From positions 2,102-66,101 of the IMG/VR virus record IMGVR_UViG_3300031084_000275: a DNA stretch of 64,000 bases. The stretch is one strand, 5' to 3'. The first letter of the stretch is position 1. Every line of letters starts with the position of its first letter. Below are positions 1,881-46,974 of the stretch, in pieces. The DNA comes from a virus. A program made the position numbers and the translations under genes. A model generated the notes under the pieces. The model searched no databases, was not told where the DNA came from, and worked only from the letters and a program-made list of their open reading frames with translations.

Positions 1881-2432
1881 TCAGTAGACAACCGCCCTTT
1901 GCATCGGCACTTGGGCATGCACCAAGCCACCTATTTCCATCGGCGCGCGCAATGCATCGATAGCGCGCTGACGTAAGGCGCTAATCGGACCACGAAGCTT
2001 CCGCTCTTCGCGGCTCAGCACCGACAGGGACATGTCGAAGTTATCCGAGATGGTGCGCAGCACAGGCTTGCGCCGCATGATCCGCATCACCAGCACGTCG
2101 GCCAGCAGTCGTTCGCGCGAGTCCGCAGCGCCCTTGATATGTTCTGACACCGTTTGGATGGCAAGGGCGCCGGGGTAGCCTTTGTGGTATTCGGCTTCGA
2201 CGACTTCCCACAGCATCGGATGCGGCTTCAGCGCACGGCGCGCGATCGACAAGGTGAACACCGCTTGTGCGTGCCAGTCATCCGGCGAAAGGCCGCTGGG
2301 CAACTTCACGATGCCAGCACCGTACCGTTCTTCCAGCGCCTGGACCACAAGCAGCGTCGCGCTCTTTGGCTCGATGGGCAGTTCAATGATGGCGAACGCC
2401 ACAGCAAGGGCGTGTTCCGGGCAGTCAAACAT
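1881..2432 (-). CDS. Putative antitermination Q-like protein
   Basis: Last gene of the early-right operon, before pR'/tR'; C-terminal HTH-like segment (LRTISDNFDMSLSVLSR). Confidence 0.55.
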   Translation of the reverse strand: MFDCPEHALAVAFAIIELPIEPKSATLLVVQALEERYGAGIVKLPSGLSPDDWHAQAVFTLSIARRALKPHPMLWEVVEAEYHKGYPGALAIQTVSEHIKGAADSRERLLADVLVMRIMRRKPVLRTISDNFDMSLSVLSREERKLRGPISALRQRAIDALRAPMEIGGLVHAQVPMQRAVVY

Positions 2433-2624
2433 GAGTGCTGGTCTCCAGGGGGATACGCTGGCCACCGATCAGCGACGGTGCTGCGTTGAGTTCGTGAATG
2501 CGGGCGGCGGCCTGGGCCATCGCCATAGACTGGGGGCGTGCACCGCGCCAGTGGCGGGCGGTCGACGGCGCCGCGCCCAGGGGTGACGACTTGGTGACCG
2601 GCGCTGTCATCGGTACCGGTCCGC

Positions 2625-2813
2625 TCATGCCTGCACCGCCAGGAGTGGGCGCAGATGAATCACCTCGACGCTGTAGACATTGCTGCGGCCAGCGACGCAA
2701 GCGCCATAGAGCGAGTTGTCCACCCGCAAGTCGAACTCAGTATTGGCATCGTTCAGGGCGGCGGACAGTTCCCGCGCGGCAGTTGAGATGCGCTGCTCTT
2801 GTTCTTGGGTCAC
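2625..2813 (-). CDS. Small phage hypothetical protein
   Basis: 62-aa ORF, 4-bp overlap with the upstream gene. Confidence 0.5.
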   Translation of the reverse strand: MTQEQEQRISTAARELSAALNDANTEFDLRVDNSLYGACVAGRSNVYSVEVIHLRPLLAVQA

Positions 2814-3193
2814 GTTGTTTCCTTTAGGGTTATGCCGTGCACATGCAGCATCAGTTTTCGCTTGATGATGTAGGCGGGCAGCTTGCGGGTCGGCTCGGAC
2901 TTCGGGTCTTCCACCACGACAGCCAAGCCTTGCTCGTAGACGAAATCGGCCACGTACCGTACGGCCTCTTCGCGCTCGCCGTCGGCGCGCTTCTGGGCGG
3001 GGATCAGCTCGTAGCTCACCTGGCGGCGCAGGCCGCTGATAAGACTCGCGCGTTGCATGAGCACCAGGGTTTGGTAACGTTGCGCTTCGCGTTTGCTGTC
3101 GAACTTCTCGCCGTTCACCACGATGGGTTCGTTCAGGTATTTGCTGGGCTTACGCTTTCTCGCACGACTGGAGAACAGGGAGCTATCAGCCAT
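2810..3193 (-). CDS. DUF1064-family PD-(D/E)xK nuclease (resolvase-like)
   Basis: FDSKREAQRY...YVADFVY...VVEDPK...KRKLM motifs. Confidence 0.8.
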   Translation of the reverse strand: MADSSLFSSRARKRKPSKYLNEPIVVNGEKFDSKREAQRYQTLVLMQRASLISGLRRQVSYELIPAQKRADGEREEAVRYVADFVYEQGLAVVVEDPKSEPTRKLPAYIIKRKLMLHVHGITLKETT

Positions 3194-34653: not shown

Positions 34654-34724
34654 TGGAGCGGGTACCGGGAATCGAACCCGGGCGGCATCGTTGGCAACGA
34701 CGACGGCAACCACTGCGTACCCGC
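34654..34724 (-). tRNA. tRNA-Gly(GCC) with truncated D-arm
   Basis: GCGGGTA/TACCCGC stem, U73-CCA, TTGCCAA loop, CCGGG-TTCGATT-CCCGG; D-arm GCA-GTGGT-TGC. Confidence 0.75.
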
Positions 34725-34725
34725 A

Positions 34726-34802
34726 TGGAGCAGAAAGGGGGAATCGAACCCCGCCCGGCCGGCCGGCTTGGAAGGCCAGCGACGCGCCACGCGCTTTCCT
34801 GC
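34726..34802 (-). tRNA. tRNA-Gly(TCC) with truncated D-arm
   Basis: GCAGGAA/TTTCTGC stem, U73-CCA, CTTCCAA loop, TTCGATT T-loop; D-arm CGCG-TGG-CGCG. Confidence 0.7.
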
Positions 34803-42114: not shown

Positions 42115-42617
42115 TGCGCACACTTGCCGAAAGGCTCACCGAGGCAATGAAAGGCCCGCCCGAGATAAAGCCGGCGGAGCTAGCTCGTGCCTGCCGAATA
42201 AAACAGCCCTCAGTAAGCGGCTGGCTTTCAGGGAAAACAAAGAAGCTCGAAGGCGCCAACCTGCTGGCCGCCGCAGAGTGTCTGCGCGTCAACTATTGGT
42301 GGCTTGCGGATGGCTCTGGCGAGATGCGACCGACGGGAAAGCAGCAGGAAAGGCCGGTTGCGGTAGCTGAGTGGCCGTTCCCGCGAATCCCAGAAGATCA
42401 AGTCCGGGCGCTTGACGAATCTGATCGGAATAGACTTGAGGGAGCGATCGCGCTCGCAATAGCCCAGCTTAAGCTCAAGATTGATCTACCTGATTTCAAG
42501 ATAGACCGAGCCACTACCCCCGTCGCCGCCGCACTCCTGGACTTTGATCCCGACGATCTCACCACTACCGCTAAGTCCTCAGAGAAGGCCAAGCAGCAGC
42601 GAGAGAAGGCCCAATGA
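42114..42617 (+). CDS. CI-like XRE repressor without S24 peptidase domain
   Basis: TLAERL...AELARAC.IKQPSVSGWLSGK...WLADGSG; only 167 aa. Confidence 0.9.
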   Translation: MRTLAERLTEAMKGPPEIKPAELARACRIKQPSVSGWLSGKTKKLEGANLLAAAECLRVNYWWLADGSGEMRPTGKQQERPVAVAEWPFPRIPEDQVRALDESDRNRLEGAIALAIAQLKLKIDLPDFKIDRATTPVAAALLDFDPDDLTTTAKSSEKAKQQREKAQ

Positions 42618-43345
42618 GGATTGACGAAGCGCAAGTAGTAGGCGGAACGTTGACCTATGTCGGTGACAGCACCACTGGGGCGCAGCGCTGCGTGCTTGCG
42701 CTTGCTGATGGGTCCCGAAGAGCGGCGATAGTCAAATTCGATCCGATAGAGATGGTGGCCGCCGAGTGCTTCTGCGCGCTGTTGCTGAGGTCGTGGGGGC
42801 TCGATGTTCCAGACGCGTATGTTGTCGAAATGGAAGGCAAGATTGGATTTGCGAGCGCCGATGCCGGCTATCCAAACTTGAAGCAACGGATGACGGTTAG
42901 CACAGACCTTCCCGAAGTGATCAGACGCGCGGCCCTTGCGCGTGCATCAGCAGTGGCTGCCGAATTCCGAAGTACGCCTCTGGCGGTTGCTGCTGATGAG
43001 GCAATCGGGAATAGAGATAGGCACTTGGGTAACATCCTCTGGGACGGTGCAAAAGAAACGTGGATTGACCACGCGCTTTCCGTTGGAAACGCTGAGCATA
43101 TGAAAGACGTGAACAAGCTGGCGCTGATCGTGAAGTTTGCGGGCGCGCACGAGCGTGTAAGCAAGTCTGCACTTGCGCACGCATTGGCCATTGATCCGAC
43201 TATATTGCAGGCCGCTCAGGACGCCACTATTGCTGCGTCGATACCATGCACCGCGGCGGAATTCGTAGCAGACCGGCTACCCGGCCTCACCGCTGCCTTA
43301 CTGGCCCGCTTCCCTGCCGCTAACGGCTTATTCTCCACAGCATGA
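42614..43345 (+). CDS. HipA-family Ser/Thr kinase
   Basis: AIVK lysine, AAEC, catalytic NRDRHLGNILW, IDH. Confidence 0.85.
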   Translation: MRIDEAQVVGGTLTYVGDSTTGAQRCVLALADGSRRAAIVKFDPIEMVAAECFCALLLRSWGLDVPDAYVVEMEGKIGFASADAGYPNLKQRMTVSTDLPEVIRRAALARASAVAAEFRSTPLAVAADEAIGNRDRHLGNILWDGAKETWIDHALSVGNAEHMKDVNKLALIVKFAGAHERVSKSALAHALAIDPTILQAAQDATIAASIPCTAAEFVADRLPGLTAALLARFPAANGLFSTA

Positions 43346-44184
43346 CCGCATCGACCTCTACAGCGACTCTTTCGCGATGGCGCGCCCTTTTCTGGGAGCC
43401 AGTCGCGGGCACGGGCGAGCGGCTGGCTGTCGGCGTGGTCTATGAATTCGGTGGAAAGTGGGCGGCGACGCGGATCATTCGCGACGACGTGTTGGATGCC
43501 CTGTATGGCAAGCAGTCGTCCGCGGCTCGCTCGCTGATTGAGCACGGCCTGTCTATCTACCAGGCGGCGGCCGCGGCCGGCGGCATCGAGCACCTGAGCA
43601 TGCCGCTAGGCGGGCTGTTTCCGACAGAGTTACGGCAGACGGAGGCAACGTCGATACCTGACGTGTTACGCACTGCCGCCCTGCTCTATTCCAGCCTGGC
43701 TCAGATCGAGAGCTTTGAGCTGGCGGACGATACCGCCATGCCCCTTCCAGAGGAAGTGAACCGACGATTCAGCACGGATGTGAAGTCTTTGGTGATCGGC
43801 AGGTTGCCAAGTCTGGCCTCCTGCTTCGGCGTGGGCGGCAAGTTGACTGATGGCGGCCAAACTGTGCGCTTCGGGTTCCTCTCACCCAAGGCGGTACTGC
43901 ACTTTTCAGTGCTTCACCCCAATAGGCAGAGCGCGAGCGTGCGCGACGGCCGGGCCAGGCTATGGGAACTGCACCGAGCAAAAGCCGCATCGGGAATTCC
44001 CATAGCCGCGCTGATCATGTCAATGCCGAAGCACGACGACCCTACCCTAGGCTTGAAGCAGCGCGACCAGTTCTTGGCGCACAAGATAGAGCTGCAGAAG
44101 GAGGCGTCCGGGGCGCAGATACTGCTCCACGCGGTGACCACCGCAAGCGAAGCAGCAGACCGAGTGATAGAAGTAGCAGCCTGA
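43342..44184 (+). CDS. Kinase partner with DUF3037-like N-terminus
   Basis: WEPVAGTGERLAVGVV; 4-bp overlap with the kinase. Confidence 0.6.
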   Translation: MTASTSTATLSRWRALFWEPVAGTGERLAVGVVYEFGGKWAATRIIRDDVLDALYGKQSSAARSLIEHGLSIYQAAAAAGGIEHLSMPLGGLFPTELRQTEATSIPDVLRTAALLYSSLAQIESFELADDTAMPLPEEVNRRFSTDVKSLVIGRLPSLASCFGVGGKLTDGGQTVRFGFLSPKAVLHFSVLHPNRQSASVRDGRARLWELHRAKAASGIPIAALIMSMPKHDDPTLGLKQRDQFLAHKIELQKEASGAQILLHAVTTASEAADRVIEVAA

Positions 44185-44447: not shown

Positions 44448-44469
44448 AAAAAGCCACCCTCGGGTGGCT
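44448..44469 (-). terminator. Terminator of the TPR-HEPN transcript
   Basis: AGCCACCCGAGGGTGGCTTTTT on the minus strand. Confidence 0.65.
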
Positions 44470-44494
44470 CTGCCGATAGGCTGCGCCAATTCCC

Positions 44495-44926
44495 TTAAGC
44501 GGAACTGACGACGTTTTCGTCAGAGGCGGCATCAAGCTTCCCCAGCTCGTCGAAAACTTTTCTCGAGCGACCCAGCGTAGCAACACAATCCTCCAACGGA
44601 TAATTGTCGTTGAGATGATAGTCAGCCCTAACCCTAGAGAGCTTCATCCGCGGCAGCTGCTTCGCCACAATCGCCACGGGCGAGTTAGCGCCGCCACCGA
44701 AAGACCGCGCCCACGCGGAATAGCCATCGACAACAGCATTGTGCGAACCCGTGCCACGGCGTTTTTCGCTCGGCGGGAAAAAATTCCCTGGCAGTGCGTC
44801 AAGCGCACGATGGAGAGCGGCGTAATAAGCCCGAGATGTCGCGGTTCGAAGAACGGCCTCATCAGATGCAGCGTCACAGCCCCACGATTCGACTAGGCTT
44901 AAAAAATCTTGAGCGTCCATGCTCAC
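44495..44926 (-). CDS. HEPN-domain protein
   Basis: LRTATSRAYYAALH; GSH; RVRADY. Confidence 0.8.
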   Translation of the reverse strand: MSMDAQDFLSLVESWGCDAASDEAVLRTATSRAYYAALHRALDALPGNFFPPSEKRRGTGSHNAVVDGYSAWARSFGGGANSPVAIVAKQLPRMKLSRVRADYHLNDNYPLEDCVATLGRSRKVFDELGKLDAASDENVVSSA

Positions 44927-45687
44927 TTCGTCGCCTCGTAGCCGATCCAGTACGCATTCAGGTCAAGATCGCGGATCTCGTCAAAAAGCAGCACCGCAAG
45001 CTCGTCGTCAAGGACATCAAGCACGTCTTGTGAAGCACCGGCCCTAAGGAAGCAGAAGACGCCCCCTTGACGTTGCTCATCATCAACCTCAAAGCGAGCA
45101 CCTTCCACGCGAATCTTGTTCTCGGAAAGCAGCCGCATGGCAACTTCATGGCATCGCGAGGCAAGATCCGGCGCTACCCCTGACGACGCAAGTCTTTCGG
45201 TCAACTGCAAGCCAATCTCCCATGCATCGTTTTGAGTTGGAGCGCGATCGGGGGTCCGTTTTGCATAATCCACGATCATGGCCCCAGCTTTCGCATGCAT
45301 TCCTATGATCTTCGCATCGGCGATCGCTGCCCGGAGAAGATCAAGGTCGGCCTTACTAGTGTCGGCCGCACGCTCGGATGCCGCAGATGATCTGAAATAG
45401 TCTCCAGCCAGCCGAAGAGCAATTGAGTAGTGCCTGAGGAGGCGACTCGACGTCCCTTGCCTGAGGGCCGACTCGAAGTTCGAGACGACGCCCTTGAGGT
45501 TCCACCGCCACCCTTCTATGTGACCAAGTAAGATGCAGCCATCAATGTAGGAAGCATTGGCCCGCACCTTCTCCGCCTTTCGCCTCAAACCCGCTGCACT
45601 AACCTCGTCGATCGTCCCGTCGACGACGGCCGCTCGGATTTCGGCTAGCACTTCAGCGGTGATGTTTGCTTTCTCGGTTTGGTGCAT
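44923..45687 (-). CDS. TPR-like helical protein with C-terminal alpha/beta domain
   Basis: Helical repeats (CILLGHI...NFESAL...HYSIAL); 4-bp overlap with HEPN. Confidence 0.65.
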   Translation of the reverse strand: MHQTEKANITAEVLAEIRAAVVDGTIDEVSAAGLRRKAEKVRANASYIDGCILLGHIEGWRWNLKGVVSNFESALRQGTSSRLLRHYSIALRLAGDYFRSSAASERAADTSKADLDLLRAAIADAKIIGMHAKAGAMIVDYAKRTPDRAPTQNDAWEIGLQLTERLASSGVAPDLASRCHEVAMRLLSENKIRVEGARFEVDDEQRQGGVFCFLRAGASQDVLDVLDDELAVLLFDEIRDLDLNAYWIGYEATK

Positions 45688-46326
45688 GGCTCTCGGGGGA
45701 CAGGAACAAAAACACCCGGTGCCATCGCGTCCGCAATCAACGCTTGGCATTCCGGGTGCTTAGACCGAGCAGGCCGCCGTAGCAGCGAGTTCGGTTGTTG
45801 ACGACTTGGTCAACAAGCCTTGAATCGTACAGCAACCAACAAAAAAAACGGGCAAGATTTTAGGCTAAAGATTGAGGCCGATAAAATAGTAGGGACCTTT
45901 TAGCTAAGTTAACGGCAGCAAATTGGGTTCCTAAAGCACCTAAGTTAGCGCAAAGACAACATTGCGTACCCTAGTAGACCGACCGAAAAGCCTTACGCAC
46001 CGCCGATCATTCCCGTACGAAGAAATCCGGCTGTACCGTTCGTCGGATGCTCGTAGATGATCACGACGCTTCTTTCATATCGGTGCGATGACCGAAGTTT
46101 GCAATCGATTGCACCGTCTATGCCACAGTCGGCCGGCCATGCTCCTGAGCAGATAATCGGTGCCAAGGTGGCCACCGATCGCCGGCCTTTGCACTTAAAC
46201 GCTGCTAGCTAGAGTGGGGCGACGTGAGTCTCAACATTGGGATGATGCAAGGAGGATCGCCGATCAAGCCTTGCGCCAACGAAGCAGACGGACGCCCGCC
46301 AACGTAACCTTTTCGTAACATTGACC

Positions 46327-46974
46327 ATGACCAAGAGCAAAGCACTGATCATGTTGGCGGCAGCAGGCATGCTGGCTTCCGCAATTTCCCCAAGCCAAAG
46401 CGCGGAACCGCCTGCGCCCGCCGCAGGCAGCCAGGGTGCGTTCGGACTAGAAATTGGGTCCACCATCGAGCAGCTCTCGAAAAACGGTGTTCGAGTCACA
46501 CCTGCCGGGCCGCCGCTTCTCTACATGATCAGCTCGGTTCCTCTCCCCCATGCAGCCTTCGAAGGTTACATCCTAACCATCTCTCCTACGGTCGGCTTGT
46601 GCTCGGTCCTGGGGTCGGGCAAAGGCATCACCACCGATTCATTCGGTACCACCCTGCGAGCAGAATTTGACGGGTTGGCTGAAGCGCTTAAGGCGAGGTA
46701 CGGAAATCCGACGACCAAGGTCGATCGTGTTTTACCAGGGAGCATCTGGAACCAGCCTCGTGACTTCATGATGGGCATGCTTCAGCGTGAACGGACGCTT
46801 ATCAGTCTCTGGGAGAGAGACAAAAAATCTGCGTTGCCTTCGACGCTCCAGGAGATCGTCCTGGGAGCGAGAGCACGGCAATCCGATACGGCATCTATTG
46901 CTCTGCAATACCGGTTCACGAACTATAAAAAATGCGAAGCTGAGGTTGCTTCAGCTGCCAACAAGGGCCTCTAG
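46327..46974 (+). CDS. Secreted or periplasmic protein in the immunity region
   Basis: Signal peptide; AFGLEIG...; ends at a terminator. Confidence 0.75.
   Translation: MTKSKALIMLAAAGMLASAISPSQSAEPPAPAAGSQGAFGLEIGSTIEQLSKNGVRVTPAGPPLLYMISSVPLPHAAFEGYILTISPTVGLCSVLGSGKGITTDSFGTTLRAEFDGLAEALKARYGNPTTKVDRVLPGSIWNQPRDFMMGMLQRERTLISLWERDKKSALPSTLQEIVLGARARQSDTASIALQYRFTNYKKCEAEVASAANKGL

Follow-up and report, generated by a model that had tools for sequence, protein, structure and literature searches.

In a 64,000-nt window (positions 2,102 to 66,101) of the 68-kb IMG/VR provirus record IMGVR_UViG_3300031084_000275, we find a two-gene cassette that encodes a 254-aa protein, P0002, built from an N-terminal TPR array and an acidic C-terminal α/β domain, and a 143-aa HEPN protein, P0001. 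The cassette is recurrent and not unique to the window. With moderate confidence, we regard it as a self-contained, horizontally swapped two-gene unit of temperate phages that would act in the manner of a toxin-antitoxin or abortive-infection system. A first-pass annotation of this DNA had described a coupled pair antisense to cI, and indeed both open reading frames (ORFs) lie on the minus strand, overlap by GTGA and are convergent with the cI operon. The features of the cassette are as follows.

44923..45687, minus strand: partner gene P0002, 254 aa, with an N-terminal TPR array and an acidic C-terminal α/β domain; candidate antitoxin or sensor
45178..45687, minus strand: TPR-like helical-repeat domain, P0002 residues 1 to ~170
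44926..45165, minus strand: acidic C-terminal α/β domain, P0002 residues 175-254; predicted HEPN-binding module
44495..44926, minus strand: HEPN gene P0001, 143 aa, with an AF0298-type HEPN-T domain; candidate RNase toxin
44923..44926, minus strand: GTGA start/stop overlap, indicating P0002/P0001 translational coupling from the sequence
44448..44471, minus strand: terminator-like hairpin and U-run, from folding; also the downstream boundary of the cassette
45791..45835, minus strand: 45-nt block with GTTGAC-N6-GTCAAC; candidate promoter/operator and upstream boundary of the cassette

P0001 is a HEPN domain of the PF05168 / AF0298-like HEPN-T clade, by profile and by fold, which bears out the assignment first made from its motifs. 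Searched singly, it has no counterpart in Pfam, NCBIfam or PADLOC, and its sole match is phrog_5176, a family of unknown function (E 2.7e-15). We aligned 27 relatives, 21-46% identical to P0001, that come from GTDB genomes, metagenomes, IMG/VR and phage records. The resulting profile matches PDB entries 9xbd/9xbc, each a 'HEPN domain-containing protein' (E 1e-9), and AF0298 (2hsb, E 1.4e-4). PF05168 is matched by 18 of the 27 relatives (best E 1.4e-7) and HepT-like_2, weakly, by only two. The model of P0001 is a four-helix up-down HEPN fold with a pLDDT above 93. Ten residues are invariant in the 27 sequences (R27, R32, Y34, Y35, A37, H39, H62, R98, D102 and Y103), and the hallmarks SRAYYAALH, SH and R..ADY that had been singled out at the first pass correspond exactly to the invariant blocks R32-x-Y34-Y35-x-A37-x-H39, S61-H62 and R98-x2-A101-D102-Y103 of the alignment.

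PF05168 HEPN-T proteins keep the Arg of the HEPN Rx4-6H motif, carry Asp in place of its His and possess a second conserved His, N-terminal to the motif, that may form an alternative active site (PMC3710099). The counterparts in P0001 are R98 for the Arg, D102 for the replaced His and H62 for the alternative His; P0001 also has H104, which yields R98-x5-H, and this residue is kept in 6 of the 27 relatives. With the AF0298-like proteins (PF05168; UPF0332; PDB 2hsb, 9xbd/9xbc, 1wwp, 1o3u) the P0001 family thus shares fold, sequence homology and the motif variant itself, an Arg followed by D-Y and a His that starts the preceding helix. It differs from them in that P0001 falls below the Pfam threshold, in its additional invariant R27/R32-x-YY-x-A-x-H39 block, and in being phage-borne and, in the loci seen, never beside an MNT gene. 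PF05168 HEPN-T is listed among the nucleotidyltransferase-associated HEPN families and has standalone as well as MNT-fused forms (PMC3710099). Over the aligned region, the position that corresponds to Y103 is Tyr in one of the entries 9xbd and 9xbc and Phe in the other (SDY versus SDF), which hints that the role of this Tyr is being probed; a literature search returned no paper for either entry and no explanation of the Tyr-to-Phe difference.

P0002 has no hit to any Pfam, NCBIfam, PADLOC or PHROG family. Word-index searches with P0002 and P0001 returned only their own proteins, or one relative when the query was a profile, but the orphan status that this implied was rejected as a product of low sensitivity: an exhaustive phmmer search with P0002 recovers 52 representative relatives, nearly all of them 249-267 aa long. 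In the AlphaFold2 model (pLDDT 93.4), residues 1 to ~170 form at least eight helices arranged as a TPR array and residues 175-252 follow a helix-strand-strand-helix-strand order. The first-pass description of a helical-repeat protein with a C-terminal α/β segment and no GSxxxG motif is therefore sound, and PF01909 is not one of the 25 families listed for the 43 scanned members of the partner family. The alignment of these 43 partners has no G-S/DxD signature columns, no invariant columns and no invariant polar residues, the near-invariant positions being Ala, Leu and Gly, which argues against an enzyme and for a protein that binds others or serves as a scaffold. DNA-binding families (helix-turn-helix, HTH, or ribbon-helix-helix) do not recur among the partners, for which we see one weak HTH_AsnC-type match in 1 of 43 members.

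The median isoelectric point (pI) of the partner family is 5.0 and that of the P0002 C-terminal domain is 4.3, compared with a family median of 8.4 for the HEPN proteins. A profile of the C-terminal domain finds nothing significant in the PDB, where the best match is ribosomal bS6 (E 0.11) and no MNT protein is matched. Among the Atlas structural neighbours of residues 150-254 there is an 89-aa PF01909 cluster (TM 0.55/0.62 over 74 residues), and its tie with RimP_N makes the likeness to MNT too weak for an evolutionary claim. Full-length structural relatives of P0002 are found among the AlphaFold Database clusters, and these are nameless save for one that bears an automatic 'SciE type' label.

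The two genes are found together throughout the loci that we examined (22 from IMG/VR, 17 from GTDB genomes, 9 from metagenome/genome look-ups and 4 from cultured-phage records, ~50 in total). At every locus a co-directional ORF immediately precedes the HEPN gene and overlaps or abuts it; this ORF is mostly ~245-300 aa long (~200-220 aa in three non-proteobacterial loci) and matches the partner profile at most of the loci. Among cultured phages, an ORF of 245-266 aa precedes the HEPN homologue in Pseudomonas phage YMC11/02/R656, Burkholderia phage vB_E192a, Pseudomonas (Stutzerimonas) phage PG1 and Klebsiella phage ST405-OXA48phi1.3, the one in vB_E192a being 26% identical to P0002 (E 2e-13). 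The pairing holds from either side. Starting from the partner, a HEPN gene (~130-141 aa) follows in 8 of the 8 full-length representatives whose contigs were examined; starting from the HEPN motif, 17 of the 22 IMG/VR loci have a partner-profile match that ends at the HEPN start, and the remaining five have an ORF of 248-266 aa in the same position or one cut by the contig end. Uniform-length relatives, recurrent pairing and pLDDT values above 93 together show that both ORFs are real and not chance ORFs in GC-rich DNA. RefSeq labels both as 'hypothetical', and a single phage record has the small one as 'HEPN domain-containing protein'.

In GTDB the partner is present in 13 of the 17 loci, mostly in Burkholderiales and Nitrosomonadales and otherwise in further Pseudomonadota. 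The four loci without the TPR profile belong to Anaerolineae, Syntrophales, Brocadiia and a deltaproteobacterium; their upstream ORFs, three of ~200-220 aa and that of Syntrophales of 248 aa, retain the helix-strand-strand-helix-strand pattern at their C-termini. Halves of the partner profile, compared with the ORFs that lack a full-profile match, give weak matches at the right place (E 0.02-0.1), which is suggestive, at the level of sequence, of homology between the TPR-less variants and P0002. The portable unit thus appears to be the acidic C-terminal domain plus the HEPN protein, with the TPR array as a proteobacterial and phage elaboration.

In TPR-less or divergent variants a third, conserved gene of 216-218 aa precedes the partner-HEPN pair (L049 2660-3316, L053 2632-3282 and L022/L023 1660-2316, from Syntrophales, a deltaproteobacterium and two IMG/VR contigs). 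Its product carries an N-terminal QFNP-x-I-x3-HWLIK-x-GI motif, and its presence suggests that a three-gene form of the system exists.

Structure prediction of the complex, which the first-pass annotation had proposed as a check, gives an ipSAE of 0.85 for P0002 with P0001, compared with 0.01 in the best control. The prediction used both family alignments, three runs and three controls; the three runs have at least 85% of their contacts in common, with a partner pLDDT of at least 81. The same score mark is met by 58 of 80 solved complexes and by 2 of 110 mismatched pairs, a rough guide only, made with self-made alignments. We know of no like complex, so that memorisation by the predictor is an unlikely source of the score.

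In the predicted complex all confident contacts on the partner side fall within residues 200-249, where the hairpin, the final strand and the LDDELAVLLFDEI helix contribute them. The contacts on the HEPN side fall within residues 57-103, in helices 61-76 and 83-103, and include N63, V99 and Y103, such that the predicted interface directly adjoins H62, R98 and Y103. Eight acidic partner residues (E200, D202, D203, E204, D227, D228, D236 and D242) face R57, R74, K89, R93 and K95 of the HEPN protein. The TPR array lies outside the predicted interface, and a modelled complex in which the C-terminal domain holds the HEPN protein and the TPR array is free fits a sensor-gated design.

The cassette is mobile and occupies several kinds of slot. 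It lies beside cI/cro in the window and in L003-L005 and L007 (in L007 next to an S24 repressor), between the tape measure and baseplate genes in vB_E192a and PG1 (L002, L055), beside head genes (L011), near the genome end in YMC11/02/R656, and in a Burkholderiaceae chromosomal island among VapBC pairs (L008). Its hosts are temperate phages of Pseudomonas, Burkholderia, Klebsiella, Yersinia and Vibrio. L003, a metagenomic phage syntenic with the window, shows most directly how the cassette is exchanged. The kinase, 280-aa and 62-aa genes of the neighbouring operon are 90%, 95% and 87% identical between the two, and the cassette proteins are 46% and 45% identical. Homology between the two DNAs (87%) ends at 44469, inside the hairpin, and resumes beyond 47047, and the single L003 match between 44470 and 47046 is the 45-nt block at 45791-45835 (87%). 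From these breakpoints we conclude that, at a single slot, a distant allele has replaced a promoter-to-terminator unit of ~1.3 kb. Such allele-for-allele exchange is a signature of arms-race genes.

Over 36 distinct pairs the mean identity is 20% for the partner and 30% for the HEPN protein, so that the partner diverges faster. Partner and HEPN distances correlate (Spearman 0.39), which is expected from joint inheritance and is not proof of co-evolution. Decayed copies also occur. In L008 and L009 the HEPN gene is truncated before R98 (R-x2-ADY) next to an intact partner (L008 5764-6033), the L008 island holding two VapBC pairs, and P0047 is an orphan 97-aa C-terminal domain without a HEPN gene (L058 3001-3294).

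We infer RNase activity, toxicity, neutralisation, a trigger and defence in the following form. P0001 would be the toxin and would cut or bind RNA, with a presumed active site made up of R98, the alternative His H62, the invariant D102-Y103 and the R32/Y34/Y35/H39 cluster. P0002 would be made first, in translational coupling with the toxin, and its acidic C-terminal domain is predicted to grip the basic face of HEPN helices 3-4, beside H62, R98 and Y103, a hold that would keep the HEPN protein inactive in the lysogen. The free TPR array would serve as a sensor or scaffold, or would control the stability of the partner. Binding of an incoming phage protein to the TPR array, or loss of a labile partner, would then free the HEPN protein, which would arrest translation and so exclude the superinfecting phage. 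We favour this explanation because of the HEPN identity, the strict pairing, the predicted interface and its charge complementarity, together with a partner that has no catalytic signature, the allele swapping, the cargo slots, the neighbourhood of a kinase pair and the pattern of decay.

Several observations weigh against this explanation. The canonical catalytic His is missing in AF0298-type HEPN-T proteins, and our literature search found no documented RNase activity or biochemical study of the PF05168 branch that lacks it. P0001 is itself not basic (pI 5.9). P0002 has no DNA-binding domain, unlike a classical autoregulating type II antitoxin, and a scan of the cassette region found no sigma-70 consensus promoter. 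The complex is a predictor's confidence and not a measurement, and its contact positions are no more conserved than others (p 0.19 and 0.56), although in a co-diversifying pair a lack of extra contact conservation neither supports nor contradicts binding. Lastly, the L017 provirus has a frameshift that divides the partner in two (2251-3014), beside a HEPN protein with all of its invariant residues. The frameshift may stem from an error in sequencing, or the cell may still produce the C-terminal half; the intact HEPN protein carries G79R.

The same architecture, predicted binding and charge pattern would equally fit a pure addiction (post-segregational killing) pair that stabilises the prophage or spreads selfishly, with a TPR array that has only a structural or proteolysis-controlling part, and both the cassette located among VapBC pairs in a chromosomal island and the existence of decayed copies are in keeping with it. 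We consider it unlikely, because defence cargo more typically shows both the replacement of alleles at the same site in near-identical phages and a location in phage moron slots beside a kinase pair of defence type, and because a conserved array of 170 residues would be a large investment for a mere antitoxin. It is likewise improbable, in our judgement, that the HEPN protein is non-catalytic and the pair an RNA-binding, nucleotide-binding or regulatory complex, for example one that modulates translation or a host pathway in the lysogen. The His of Rx4-6H is not conserved, HEPN proteins that lack the motif may act via RNA binding (PMC3710099) and P0001 is mildly acidic; however, the ten invariant residues, which include two His, three Arg, three Tyr and one Asp, resemble an active site, an alternative His site has been proposed for exactly the PF05168 HEPN-T branch (PMC3710099), and the related AbiV was reported in a preprint to be an rRNA-degrading RNase (bioRxiv 10.1101/2024.05.05.592566).

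The first-pass annotation had also raised derivation from an MNT-HEPN pair, and here the two halves of the cassette differ: the HEPN protein does belong to the nucleotidyltransferase-associated PF05168 clade, whereas the partner lends no sequence support to an MNT origin. On another reading the cassette would be a degenerate type VII (HepT/MntA-like) system, in which the C-terminal domain is a dead MNT remnant that inhibits by binding or in which Y103 is modified by a host enzyme. The invariant Y103 lies near R98, as does the AMPylated Tyr in HepT (PMC13000451), PF05168 HEPN-T is among the nucleotidyltransferase-associated families and the PF01909 cluster is among the structural neighbours of residues 172-254 (TM 0.55/0.62). 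We nonetheless find this very doubtful. RimP_N equals the PF01909 cluster in TM score, the partners show no G-S/DxD signature, PF01909 is missing from the families listed for 43 members, and a profile search of the PDB with the C-terminal domain matches no MNT. The MNT fold has a helix between strands 1 and 2, after the GS motif, and the strand order of P0002 has no helix there. Most improbable of all is a counter-defence or host-takeover device, in which the HEPN protein destroys host defence RNA or binds signalling nucleotides and the TPR array is a targeting subunit. In favour of this, phages carry the cassette and the HEPN fold has long been associated with the binding of nucleotides, but the cassette lies in a lysogeny-expressed region, convergent with cI, and not in an early lytic operon, copies are present in non-phage chromosomal islands, and the pairing is toxin-like.

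Compared with described systems, the cassette appears, from its sequence, to join an undescribed partner to a HEPN toxin-type module. The failure of the first-pass annotation to match it to a named system is upheld: PADLOC-DB v2.0.0 (2023) has no match for either protein at E up to 1, no named system was found in Pfam, NCBIfam or the literature searched, and literature searches found no TPR-HEPN or HEPN-TPR pair; four HEPN systems are listed by DefensePredictor. In HepT/MntA, a small HEPN toxin, often on mobile elements, is paired with a cognate protein that binds near its active site (PMC13000451, PMC11586414), and the AMPylated Tyr of HepT adjoins the motif Arg (PMC13000451). The cassette resembles this type VII system in its small HEPN protein, its single cognate binder (here predicted) and the Tyr that adjoins the motif Arg. 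It differs in that P0001 is of the PF05168 branch with R-x3-D-Y, not the DUF86 Rx4HxY, and in that P0002 is no nucleotidyltransferase and carries a TPR array, with inhibition predicted to be by binding; enzymatic AMPylation is accordingly not expected. Membership of type VII HepT/MntA is thus ruled out, as the partner fails the nucleotidyltransferase test, and a textbook type II toxin-antitoxin system is ruled out as the partner has no DNA-binding domain. Of the type II features, adjacency and coupling are present and toxin binding by the partner is predicted only (ipSAE 0.85).

AbiV is an anti-phage HEPN protein, described in a preprint as an rRNA-degrading RNase that is neutralised by an RNA, in the type III manner (bioRxiv 10.1101/2024.05.05.592566), and its alternative His is at the same position as that of the first HEPN-T family (PMC3710099). 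The candidate inhibitor of the cassette is by comparison a TPR protein and not an RNA, and HEPN_AbiV is not matched among the families listed for the 27 HEPN members. Closer in layout are LA2681, a HEPN family fused to or in an operon with TPR proteins, and AbiU2, found in an operon with a Sel1-repeat protein (PMC3710099 Table 1). Like them, the cassette combines HEPN and a TPR/Sel1-type repeat protein within a single operon; these are, however, other HEPN families, in which the canonical Rx4-6H is conserved and for which an acidic C-terminal binding domain is not described. Both are absent among the 21 families matched by the 27 HEPN members (E up to 1), though they may be remote kin within the superfamily. 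The partner, finally, resembles ImpE/SciE (TagJ) in having an N-terminal TPR-like array and a small C-terminal domain, and the automatically named SciE-type cluster aligns over the whole P0002 model (TM 0.68/0.65). ImpE is not matched among the 25 Pfam families listed for the partners, and no type VI secretion genes are present at the loci seen.

Bacterial immunity makes repeated use of HEPN toxins as effectors, as in Cas13, Csm6, AbiV and HepT. The cassette may, in a more ambitious reading that we hold only tentatively, be the founding example of a widespread, undescribed family of phage-borne abortive-infection systems, in which a TPR sensor would release an RNA-cutting AF0298-type HEPN protein with an alternative His/Arg/Tyr site and in which the acidic α/β domain would be a new portable HEPN inhibitor, present in TPR-less form in other phyla too. 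If this were true, it would provide a first functional handle on the large and biochemically obscure PF05168 HEPN-T clade. As a compact pair with a confident model of the grip, the cassette would be a tractable case for the RNase status of these proteins, for non-enzymatic silencing and for a TPR-based read-out of infection, and many 'hypothetical protein' pairs in prophages could gain labels. The module is coherent, widespread, unannotated and tractable; a HEPN toxin with a repeat-protein partner is conceptually unsurprising, and what we say of its function we infer.

The boundaries and starts of the cassette can be assigned with some precision. P0002 begins at ATG 45687, and each of the 43 aligned homologues has its start no more than a few residues from that Met, which disfavours the alternative ATG at 45750 (275 aa). 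P0001 begins at GTG 44926, within the P0002 stop, with GAGG 7-8 nt upstream of the GTG, and its start position is shared with the aligned close homologue in L003. The GC-rich hairpin 24 nt past the HEPN stop has 6 core G-C/A-U pairs (at most 9 with its base) and a 4-nt loop, CGAG, followed by five U. The claim that the pair has its own terminator stands in part and as a pattern only. It is the hairpin-plus-U form and the DNA homology breakpoint at that point (44469) on which the call is based; the hairpin, read by eye and from folding, is absent from the list of a consensus terminator scan, and the 65-nt fold around it is no more stable than shuffled sequences (z -0.62). On the other side, the inverted repeat GTTGAC-N6-GTCAAC of the 45791-45835 block is perfect, and the block is directly upstream of the partner gene in both the window and L003. 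No other DNA between the cassette and the pL region is conserved with L003, and the block may act as a promoter/operator or mark a recombination boundary at which cassettes are exchanged.

The large terminase of the provirus shares 85% identity with its counterpart in Pseudomonas phage PS-1, and the one sequencing run listed as containing the full DNA is a phyllosphere metagenome, perhaps the source sample, with no RNA run listed; the host is, from these, probably a Pseudomonas. The cassette has a lower GC content (0.56-0.58) than the phage backbone (0.62-0.66). The plus-strand operon with which the cassette is convergent encodes a cI-like HTH protein, a weak HipA-like kinase, a 280-aa protein and a 62-aa protein. 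The 243-aa kinase, with PF07804/PF20613 matches below threshold, overlaps the 280-aa gene (42614-44184, plus strand), and the pair, directly downstream of the cI-like HTH gene, has no match in PADLOC v2. It resembles DS-6/HipAD, a validated defence system composed of a HipA-like kinase and a DUF3037/DUF1829 protein (PMC13092281).

Divergent from the cassette, at 46321-46974 on the plus strand, is a 217-aa ORF with a signal-peptide/lipoprotein-like N-terminus; it has no family match, is not present in the syntenic phage L003 and is probably a further swappable moron. Elsewhere in the window, ARAGORN identifies two neighbouring phage tRNA-Gly genes, GCC and TCC, at 34654-34802 on the minus strand.

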